A stretch of 48,406 bases of DNA from Elusimicrobiota bacterium. GTDB taxonomy: Bacteria > Elusimicrobiota > Elusimicrobia > Elusimicrobiales > UBA9959. Where the stretch lies: contig JBAXKK010000008.1 of assembly GCA_037137395.1 (NCBI GenBank), forward strand, positions 1-48,406, read 5' to 3'. This document shows positions 27,001-30,000 of this stretch, piece by piece. The first letter of the stretch is position 1, and each line of letters opens with the position of its first letter. The position numbers were made by a program.

Positions 27001-30000
27001 GGAAGAGGGTCAGGGCGAAGCGGTGACAAAGATATCTGCCCTGGACGAATATCTGTCGGCGCGCAAAAATGCTCCGGTGGCCGCAAGCAAGAATGCGGAA
27101 GTGCGGGAAATGAAAGTAACGGATAGCGCTCCGGGAAACGACCTGCTGGACAGAATCGGAAAAGTAGAATTCCAGTAGACATCATTTAAAGTGGTAATTA
27201 AAGTGACACACAACTTAATTGGCATCAATTAAGTTGTGTGTCACTTTAATTCACTTTAATTCGGACACGAATCCCGGAAATTTAAAAGCCGGCTTTCGAA
27301 AGAAGGCCGGCTTTTAAATTATGGAGGCGCCGGGATTCGCACCCGGGTCCGACAATTACATGTCAGAGTCACTACAGGCTTAGTCCTGAGTTTGTCTCGG
27401 ATCGGCCTAGTTCAGGACGACAAAGCCGGTCCAAAGCTCCGTGTGGTCTTTTGCCCGCGCATACGAAGCGCGACACGCGGACAGCACCCTGCGTTTTGAC
27501 GCTCACCGGATGTTGCAGAGAGACATCCGGCAGCGAGGCTCACTTAAGCGTGAGCCCAGGCCATCTCGTTTGAGTTGGCTTTTTTGTTTTTGACCCTGTT
27601 TTACATGGCCTGGTCAACCATGGCCTGCAACTTTGACACGATAAGTTGCCGTCGAACCTATTCGCCCCCGATTGTCGCACCTACTATCAACTTCTACACT
27701 TATATTTTAGCAGGTTTTCATTGGTAAAGCCATAGGAAAAAGCTGTCATCACGGCTGGTTGTAGGTCCGGAAAGGATAGTATCCAGTGACCCGTATCCGG
27801 TAACCGGTGGGGAACAGAGGTAAATCAGTTACCGGATACCGGTTACAACTAGTTACTGATTGCCGGTTTTAGGCTTCCCGCCATGCGCCGGCCCCGCGTC
27901 CGCCACTTTCCGTATTACTTTTAGCGGATCGCCGCCGCCAATTATCCTGAGTCCGTCCCCAAAACGGGAGGGGAGGAAGATAAGAGAAGAGCCGAACAGT
28001 TCCTGCCACTTTTTTATGGCCGTCATATCTATGGGTGCTTTGGGCTGGAAAAAAATCTCAAGGGTTTCCCCTTTTTGAACCACCGACCTTACGGAGCGCA
28101 GCGCCAGTTCTTTTTTGAGTTTTATGATGACTGCAAGGTTCCTCAGCGGTTCCGGGGCCGGGCCGGACAGGTCTTCCAGCCCCGCCATTACCTTGTCCAC
28201 TTTTTCCAGATCAGCGTTCAGGAGCTTCTTGTAAAAATTCAGGCGCTCCATATCGTCGCCTATATAATCTTCCGGTATGAAAGCCGGGAGTTCCAGGTCT
28301 ATCTTTACATCCGGCAATGCCACATCCTGGCCGCGGCCCTTAATGCGGTTTATCTCCCCGTTCAGAAGCTTGATATACATTTCAAGGCCGATGGAATTTA
28401 TGAAACCGTGCTGACGAACCCCCAGCAGTTCACCCGCGCCGCGCAGTTCCATGTCCCGCATCGCCAGGCGAAAGCCCGAACCCAGCTCTGTAAATTCTTC
28501 AAGCGCGCTAAGCCGTTTCATGGCGAGTTCAGATATAGTGGCCTCAGGTGACAGGTTGCAGGCGGCAGGCGGCAGGGAATTTGCGCCCTTGGACTCGTAA
28601 TCTGTTACCTGCGACCTATTACCTGCAACCTTCTTCTTCATCCATCCCGGGTAAAACAGGTAGCAGTAGGCCTTCTGCTTCTCGCGGCCTATCCGCCCGC
28701 GCAGCTGATAGAGCTGGGCCAGCCCCAGCTCGTGGGCATTCTCAACTATCATAGTATTAACGCTTGGGATATCCAGGCCGGACTCGATGATGGTGGAGGC
28801 CATCAGAACATCGTACTTCTTCTGCAGAAAGTCCCACATGTATTTTTCTATCTGTTCGCCCTTCATCTGCCCGTGCACTACCGCTACGCGCAGGTAAGGC
28901 ATTATTTTTTCCAGATAAGCCCGGCGCGAATCTATGGTTTGCACGCGGTTGTGAACATAGTAAACCTGTCCACCGCGGGCCAGCTCAAAATTCACAGCGT
29001 TAATCAGAGCCGTTTCGTCGAACGGGCGGACCTGGGTTGAAATCGGCAAGCGTCCTACCGGCGGGCTCTCTATTACCGACATAGTCTTTAAAGTGGAGAG
29101 AGACTGGTAAAGCGTGCGGGGGATAGGCGTGGCCGAGAGCATCAGCAGGTGCACGCCCTTGGCCATGGCTTTCAGTTTTTCTTTATCCTTTACGCCAAAG
29201 CGGTGTTCTTCGTCTATGATCAGCAATCCCAGATTTTTTAATTTCACATCCTTCTGCAGCAGCCGGTGCGTGCCTATGACTATATCCAGCTTGCCATGGG
29301 CCAGCTCCTCCAGTATTTTCTTCTGGTCGGATCGGGTCTCGAACCGGGAGATGACTCCGATCTTAACCGGAAATTCCTTGAACCGGTTAAAAAAATTACG
29401 GAAATGCTGATCAGCCAGAATGGTGGTCGGCGCCAGAACCACCGCCTGTCGCCCGTTGAATACGGCGCGCATGGCCGCCCTCATAGCCACTTCGGTTTTT
29501 CCAAAGCCCACGTCTCCGACTACCAGGCGGTTCATGGGACTTGCGGATTCAAGATCGGTCAGCACATCGCGGATCGCCGCGCTTTGATCCGGTGTCTCTT
29601 CAAAAGGAAAGGAGGAGGCGAATTCGTTCTCCATACGCCCGGCTTCCGGAAGCGCTATTGTCTTCATCGCCATGCGCTCAGCCTCAACCTTGAGAATATC
29701 GCGGGCCAGGGTCTGGACTTCTTCGCGAACGCGGCTTTTAAGTTCGTGCCAGGTCTTCGTGTCCATATGGGAAAGCTTGGGGACTTTACCCTCAGAACTG
29801 ATGAATTTCTGCACCCGGTTGAACTCGTGCAGCGGCACCATCAGTTTATCGCCGCGGGCGTATTCCATGAGCAGACAATCGGCGTCTTCAGTATTCTCGT
29901 TGTTCGCGTTGCGGTAATAAGCCTTTTTGATACCGAGGTACCTGCCCACGCCGTAGTCTTCATGCACCACAAAGTCGCCTGTTTTAAGGTCCGCCCACTT

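Follow-up and report, generated by a model that had tools for sequence, protein, structure and literature searches.

The tmRNA of the Elusimicrobiota bacterium examined here encodes a degradation tag that ends in His-Ala, not Ala-Ala, in a genome that has no ClpX. ClpX loss and tag change go together strongly within the phylum and again outside it, and the defining signature of the switch is a large hydrophobic residue shifted to position -4 with Ala at -3, not the His and not the penultimate residue as such. We consider it highly probable that the tag has been retargeted, in that the new end would act as a degron for one of the ATP-dependent proteases that remain.

The tmRNA locus and its genome

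The window, that is, the whole 48,406-nucleotide stretch of contig JBAXKK010000008.1 that was analysed, carries a tmRNA gene (Table 1) that matches RF00023 over model positions 1-374 with 140.6 bits (E 3.9e-55) against a gathering score of 47. ARAGORN places the gene at 27322-27669 on the minus strand, with the coding part at 91-126. The score, the tRNA-like domain and the tag frame with its stop codon all assign the locus to the tmRNA family, and the first-pass annotation was right in giving the tag as ANSNEMAWAHA. This tag has 11 residues, with a single aromatic residue besides His, and all nine other genomes of the same family that were read have their tag in the same frame. The segment 27525-27585 folds at -23.5 kcal/mol (z -3.88), in agreement with Rfam helix 5. 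Upstream of the terminator-like repeat on the contig, at 27196-27251, the space that separates it from the trypsin-like gene shows in its sequence a perfect inverted repeat of 26 bp around a loop of 4 bases. The wider flanks (24830-31167) hold mfd (27853-31167) on one side and two peptidase genes on the other, and no integrase was found among the scanned proteins adjoining the tmRNA.

Table 1. Features of the window in and around the tmRNA gene (contig positions)
Feature	Positions	Strand	Basis
tmRNA gene (ssrA), one-piece, full length	27319..27669	-	Rfam RF00023
Tag reading frame and stop, GCC resume codon, ANSNEMAWAHA*	27544..27579	-	ARAGORN
Codons of the shifted end W-A-H-A	27547..27558	-	sequence
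Helix 5: 8-bp stem on the W/A/H codons; last Ala codon and stop in the loop	27536..27557	-	fold
Inverted repeat directly past the tmRNA 3' end, terminator-like	27280..27319	.	by eye in sequence
Trypsin-like serine protease gene	26144-27178		
S49 peptidase gene	24830-26017		
Alanyl-tRNA synthetase gene	18687-21347		

The genome itself (G000; 98.9% complete, 7.7% contaminated) had been described as lacking ClpX, with tig, clpP and lon side by side, and as retaining ClpC with an LGF loop, ClpP, Lon and FtsH; each of these points was borne out. Specifically, the full-length ClpX model TIGR00382 reaches no more than 26.6 bits, the cut-off being 370.75, the ClpX zinc finger PF06689 has no match, and tig, clpP (201 aa) and lon (793 aa) are direct neighbours on contig C30 with clpX cleanly missing. 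A ClpX with the zinc finger, pore-2 and RKH loops that define the ssrA/ClpXP system is thus not encoded. What the genome does encode is one ClpC-type ATPase with the LGF loop, one ClpP, Lon and FtsH, with no match to an HslU-type ATPase. A 158-aa frame on C62 is presumably SmpB-like, as judged by an RKLLL motif rather than by a profile.

Several further observations concern the same genome. A short frame with a GGQ motif (C89:1-384) is ArfB-like and a possible back-up rescue factor. RqcH was found in none of five genomes checked, including this one and the ClpX-bearing G062, which makes its absence uninformative. A CDC48-family ATPase over its family cut-off and a BREX BrxL protein are also encoded (C13, C51; L115:5681-7870, L112:3423-5552). 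Among 2006 crude gene calls, 18 end in -AA against a bulk expectation of 20, a weak comparison limited to one genome.

ClpX and tag ends across the phylum

A profile search of 401 genomes of the phylum, with four candidates scored per genome, found ClpX over the cut-off in 134. None of these belongs to the 230 genomes of the own clade (families f1, f2, f3, f6, f7, f8 and f9 plus G000) or to the 15 genomes of f15, f19, f20 and f22, and ClpP is kept in 59 of 62 genomes tested. Among 51 clpP loci, the order tig-clpP-clpX was seen in 18 ClpX-bearing genomes, tig-clpP-lon in f1, f2 (G056), f3, f7, f9, f15, f19, f20 and f22, and clpP-lon in f6; most ClpX-less families have lon immediately after clpP, with rearrangements at several loci of f2 and f8. 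This operon synteny, together with the zero count in the own clade, rules out an assembly gap as the cause of the missing gene. In a tree with 12 ClpX proteins from other phyla, 21 from Elusimicrobiota group as a single clade (SH-aLRT 100), so the absence is a loss. The sub-groups of that tree resemble those of RpoBC, and it gives no support to a regain of ClpX by transfer in the families that have it.

The first-pass annotation had noted ClpX-like hits under the cut-off. Such matches do exist, but they represent a patchily distributed paralogue of 460-600 aa without zinc finger or RKH loop, which is absent from G000. The five inspected (461-597 aa) lie outside the operon, and matches occur in 10 of 47 f1 and 22 of 118 f2 genomes. 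As a general hidden reader of the tag the paralogue was rejected on the grounds of its missing zinc finger and RKH loop, its patchiness and its unrelated neighbourhoods, with only part of the f2 matches inspected. The ATPase (L006-L010) has a divergent N-terminal region, keeps the IGF loop, adjoins WYL-like, HEAT-like repeat and AAA genes, and is possibly mobile.

Tags were compared across the phylum by a tmRNA search in 160 of 400 relatives, which gave a full match in 149; 100 loci were fetched to cover the families, and one, a second and foreign-looking tmRNA in G100, was dropped, leaving 99 genomes that with G000 yield 100 tags. About one-fifth of the tags were missed or mis-framed by ARAGORN and were read by hand, then re-read by script. 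The end is hydrophobe-Ala-Ala in all 52 ClpX-bearing genomes, as had been claimed for such lineages. For the ClpX-less genomes the claim had been a non-Ala penultimate residue; this is found in 42 of 48, but the change that defines the group, Ala at -3 with a hydrophobe at -4, is found in 45. All 34 tags of the own clade, 10-12 residues long, end in W-A-x-A (x = T, H, A, N or V) with an invariant Trp at -4, while f19 has V-A-H/Y-A/C in nine of nine tags, f20 has Y-A-T-A and f15 has Y-A-V-C. The W-A-x-A end had been assigned to the order and two sister families; it is indeed shared, but by four families outside the order rather than two.

Three ClpX-less genomes with -AA ends had been listed as exceptions, and they differ in kind. 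G042 keeps the shifted register, since its tag, like those of G024 and G130, ends in W-A-A-A. G004 is also missing clpP and lon and probably reflects an assembly gap. The remaining one, G031, is a true exception: a one-contig genome with tig-lon and no ClpX, ClpP or ClpC, whose long, Phe-rich tag ends in MAA. A further exception, G069, combines a clean clpX deletion with the tag FAFAA. The G031 locus (L359:5068-8874, tig then lon) belongs to a Lon-and-FtsH-only cell outside the Mollicutes, and G097 of the same genus keeps clpP-clpX. Long tags of 20-35 residues, rich in Met and Phe and ending in -AA, occur in the ClpX-bearing families f16, f17, f23, f31 and f32 (L014, L017, L029, L012, L079, L083) and resemble mycoplasma tags in length. 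The second tmRNA of the ClpX-less G100 (L085) has the tag GNNSYAIAA, unlike its relatives, and may be contamination or part of an island.

Within the own clade the Ala at -3 is spelled with all four codons, Trp is constant and position -2 is free; synonymous change at the Ala codons beside a fixed Trp points to selection on the peptide. This bears on the possibility that the end merely relaxed, W-A-x-A being an inherited accident of drift after ClpX, or of the needs of helix 5, with no reader behind it. All W-A-x-A genomes fall in a single clade (SH-aLRT 100), so their 34 tags count as one event, the tag-end codons do sit in helix 5, single-Ala ends also occur beside an intact ClpX, and degradation tagging is dispensable in M. 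pneumoniae (excerpt of PMC8403727). Nonetheless, across seven families Trp and both Ala hold constant against changes at third positions and in the -2 codon, with a helix that is rebuilt to accommodate them, and unrelated ClpX-less lineages share one shape rather than random ends, albeit in a scan that selected for that shape. Drift alone therefore seems to us improbable.

With respect to the number of events, the ends VAHA, VAYA and YATA had been said to arise separately, which trees of RpoB plus partial RpoC do not establish. A single clade of all shifted lineages is not rejected (p-AU 0.83), and neither is monophyly of the own class (p-AU 0.82; class grouping from the genome tool), which would imply at least two losses of ClpX. 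A quick tree under a mixture model (57 rows reduced to 37 and 32) places the own clade with ClpX-bearing families (SH-aLRT 81) and leans weakly to several losses. One or several losses are both compatible with the RpoB/RpoC data, and separate origins are plausible.

The same end shape in other phyla

A pattern scan of the GTDB collection for tmRNA ends with Ala-x-Ala-stop, x not starting with G, returned at least 120 loci. The first 80 comprise 67 shifted tags, 12 ordinary -AA tags caught by chance and one locus that is not a tmRNA; the shifted tags belong to Mollicutes, Erysipelotrichales and other Bacilli with small genomes, Patescibacteria, Dependentiae, Solirubrobacterales and a few members of the cyanobacteria and deltaproteobacteria, although some record names (e.g. 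'Muribaculaceae') look unreliable. Among these loci, ClpX is over the cut-off in 10 of the 67 shifted-tag genomes versus 11 of the 12 with -AA tags; many of the genomes are small, their completeness is not given and kin are not independent. Ten of the other 40 loci gave ClpX in one of eight shifted and one of two -AA genomes.

The ClpX-less genomes with shifted tags number 57, of which 25 have Lon without ClpP, 21 have ClpP without a full Lon, 10 have both and one has neither; the shape accompanies Lon-only and ClpP-only sets alike and so does not name one reader. The ten shifted-tag genomes that do have ClpX include every one of the five Solirubrobacterales; the others are two cyanobacteria, two deltaproteobacteria and one of the Patescibacteria. 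An altered ClpX does not excuse these counter-examples, as the pore-2 and RKH loops are canonical in eight of the nine inspected and the RKH loop is lost only in the Patescibacteria protein. In that ClpX (L351, G462) the loop reads KKM beside a shifted tag, and it is possibly a ClpX losing its tag-reading role. The Solirubrobacterales (L242, L265, L267, L271, L297, L343-L346) combine single-Ala ends (FALA, PAFA, PAMA) with canonical ClpX, several ClpP copies and Lon.

In the other direction, G031, G069, G463 and the Anaerolineales genome G487 have no ClpX yet keep -AA; the scan selects shifted tags, which places the share of such genomes outside its reach. The proposed connection between ClpX loss and tag switch is thus strong in the phylum and recurs beyond it, but with exceptions both ways, and the first-pass annotation had missed its Mycoplasma precedent. 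That a tag switched to Lon after the loss of ClpXP is already published for the Mollicutes (excerpts of PMC8403727 and PMC9382460).

Candidate readers and meaning of the new end

ClpX needs the last two alanines of the ssrA tag (excerpt of PMC7652416), and it also reads an L-V-A end, which means that a non-Ala residue at -2 need not abolish reading (excerpt of PMC10862746). The ends W-A-H-A, W-A-T-A, W-A-N-A, Y-A-F-A and V-A-H-A are all absent from one supplementary table of the E. coli pentapeptide screen (excerpt of PMC10862746). The course of events we propose is as follows. Trans-translation would have stayed intact, as the tmRNA and the SmpB-like motif suggest, while clpX, as the gene order shows, was deleted from the original tig-clpP-clpX-lon operon in the common ancestor of a large clade. 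Freed from the demand of ClpX for Ala-Ala, the end would have been rebuilt from hydrophobe-A-L-A-A to A-W-A-x-A, a shift of one residue, and then held by selection on the peptide, to judge by the codon pattern; the order of these steps is the one we infer.

As the main reader we favor Lon, by analogy with the Mollicutes (Y-A-F-A), at somewhat less than an even chance and slightly ahead of ClpCP as the predicted reader. The choice draws on the Mollicute precedent and on the aromatic residue in the tag end: the M. pneumoniae tag is cleared in vivo by Lon and not FtsH (excerpt of PMC8403727), the M. florum tag, which ends NYAFA, is read by Lon (excerpt of PMC9382460), and Lon favors aromatic degrons (excerpt of PMC11882793). 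It also draws on retention, as 222 of 229 clade genomes have Lon, and so do 13 of 15 of f15, f19, f20 and f22, but it is lost in some ClpX-bearing families (present in 13 of 23 genomes of f4, f5 and f11).

Two changes in Lon, Pro to Ala/Thr at 19 and Leu to Phe at 95, are specific to the clade (10 of 10 clade Lons, none of 14 from ClpX-bearing genomes) and lie on either side of the residues that make up the C-terminal-degron pocket of Caulobacter Lon. The pocket was mapped via PDB 9jwa, which, as the residue spacing matches, we take to be the Caulobacter domain of the PMC11882793 paper. Pocket residues I20, V23, L33, R37 and T91 are present in the G000 protein. Outside the phylum, position 19 is other than Pro in 8 of 12 ClpX-less versus none of 8 ClpX-bearing Lons, from few lineages. 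Positions 347 and 350 were set aside as uninformative, since they follow G003 as well as the ClpX-less lineages and are highly variable outside. A predicted complex of a Lon N-terminal piece with a tag-bearing frame (G072) scored 0.11, its Lon chain including some 85 residues that precede the start, and speaks neither for nor against Lon.

Against Lon, columns 19 and 95 were picked post hoc from about 790 and may merely mark the clade, and the second ClpX-less group shares one of them in only one of eight Lons. The pocket of Lon prefers a terminal His or aromatic residue, whereas the last residue of the tag is Ala (excerpts of PMC11986505 and PMC11882793), and replacing a terminal His by Ala slows Yersinia Lon from 2.6 to 0.3 per min (excerpt of PMC11986505). 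The 11-residue tag has no long aromatic middle of the kind seen in mycoplasma tags, G031 and G069 lost clpX yet kept -AA, and the 21 ClpP-only genomes outside the phylum, with no Lon over the cut-off, indicate that the shape does not require Lon. Moreover, ClpC is kept just as faithfully as Lon (220 of 229; 15 of 15), and ClpP stays as well.

This retention is the starting point for an unlikely but substantial alternative, in which ClpC on the retained ClpP took over and reads the hydrophobe-Ala-x-Ala end without an adaptor. ClpC with an intact LGF loop and ClpP are kept in all ClpX-less families, and the genome that lost ClpX, ClpP and ClpC alike (G031) kept -AA. The ClpP-only shifted genomes, such as Lon-less Patescibacteria, fit as well, four of five checked having a ClpC-type ATPase with an IGF/MGF loop and the fifth being truncated. 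E. coli ClpA, moreover, reads the inner Ala-Leu-Ala of the tag and not its last two residues. On the other hand, ClpCP is not known to be the ssrA protease of B. subtilis. The 25 Lon-only genomes with shifted tags also speak against ClpCP, as does G069, which retains ClpC and ClpP, lost ClpX and has an unaltered tag. A further point for ClpCP is a ClpC column just past the D1 pore loop, where 15 of 16 ClpX-less genomes have Ile and 11 of 13 ClpX-bearing genomes have Met, but this is a conservative substitution picked post hoc, and the pore loops and LGF loop themselves are unchanged. A ClpC-type N-domain is found in none of 89 genomes of the ClpX-bearing f16. In the ClpC of f15, f19, f20 and f22 (L371, L403, L405-L407) the Arg of the TPRAKK motif, presumably part of the phospho-arginine site, is lost in five of five, and no McsB motif was found in G000.

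Less probable again is that no single protease reads the end, which would instead be a general non-polar degron common to FtsH, Lon and ClpCP, with FtsH as the common denominator that would account for the arrival of Lon-only and ClpP-only lineages at one shape. Lon-only, ClpP-only and both-bearing genomes do show the same shape, FtsH is over the cut-off in all five outside shifted-tag genomes checked and in G000, and ClpAP, Lon, FtsH and Prc each recognise the E. coli tag weakly (excerpt of PMC9382460). FtsH depletion, however, left tagged proteins unstabilised in M. pneumoniae (excerpt of PMC8403727), and a Trp invariant over 34 tags suggests one specific pocket.

Compared with known systems, the Elusimicrobiota switch is one that works like that of the Mollicutes but departs from it in three features, namely a lost ClpP, a long tag and a demonstrated reading by Lon. 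In both, ClpX is absent, Lon and FtsH are present and the end is no longer Ala-Ala, with an aromatic residue at -4, Ala at -3, non-Ala at -2 and Ala at -1 (NYAFA vs AWAHA; W-A-H-A of G000 against Y-A-F-A of the Mesoplasma locus L263). Mollicutes, however, have Lon and FtsH as their only ATP-dependent proteases, whereas the clade keeps ClpP and ClpC, and their tags are long with an internal aromatic cluster (27 residues in M. pneumoniae), unlike the short tags of the clade. The clade also differs in genomes of up to 4-5 Mb, in its invariant Trp and in a small or polar residue at -2, and for its tag Lon is the predicted rather than the established reader.

With the canonical E. coli tag AANDENYALAA (ClpXP; excerpt of PMC7652416) the clade shares the one-piece tmRNA, Ala resume codon, terminal Ala, a short polar-then-hydrophobic tag and helix 5 over the tag end, a form kept by the ClpX-bearing relatives in the phylum; it differs in having no ClpX, no Ala-Ala end and the large hydrophobe moved from -3 to -4. 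The C-terminal His degrons of Lon (SulA, Y2853, LarA; x-L/I-L/I/V-H) are likewise short with aromatic residues and His (excerpts of PMC11986505 and PMC11882793). Their His is terminal, whereas that of the own tag is penultimate and gives way freely to Thr, Asn, Val or Ala among relatives, and the tag is therefore not a degron of this type.

Within the literature covered, which excludes subscription journals, we found no account of a tag switch in the Elusimicrobiota or the Patescibacteria, none of a pattern spanning phyla, and no description of a short tag with retained ClpCP or of the recurrence. The tags themselves are probably in existing tmRNA databases, but excerpts of the database papers PMC11915505 and PMC4131195 and of the review PMC8012679 do not tie tag ends to Clp content. 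The interest of the switch lies in its short Trp tag in ClpCP-bearing cells and in the recurrence across phyla.

Taken together, these observations allow a broader reading that we put forward tentatively and think rather unlikely. Loss of ClpX would have driven the tag repeatedly to hydrophobe-Ala-x-Ala in at least five unrelated groups (the own clade, other Elusimicrobiota families, Mollicutes together with related Bacilli, Patescibacteria and Dependentiae), giving an unrecognised second class of ribosome-rescue degron that would be read by ClpC-ClpP where ClpP is kept, as in the own clade and most Patescibacteria (without Lon). The 11-residue W-A-H-A tag and its protease would then make up a short degron pair orthogonal to ClpXP. 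Orthogonal degradation in synthetic circuits currently employs the long M. florum tag; a short natural tag, expected to be a poor ClpXP substrate, is a candidate for the same use. The Mycoplasma switch has so far been treated as an oddity of minimal cells. Were it to recur with every loss of ClpX, including in ClpP-bearing bacteria of 2-5 Mb, tag and protease would co-evolve as a rule, the tag end would predict the protease set of uncultured bacteria, and the clearance of rescued chains in Patescibacteria and other ClpX-less phyla would become testable with a few purified proteins.
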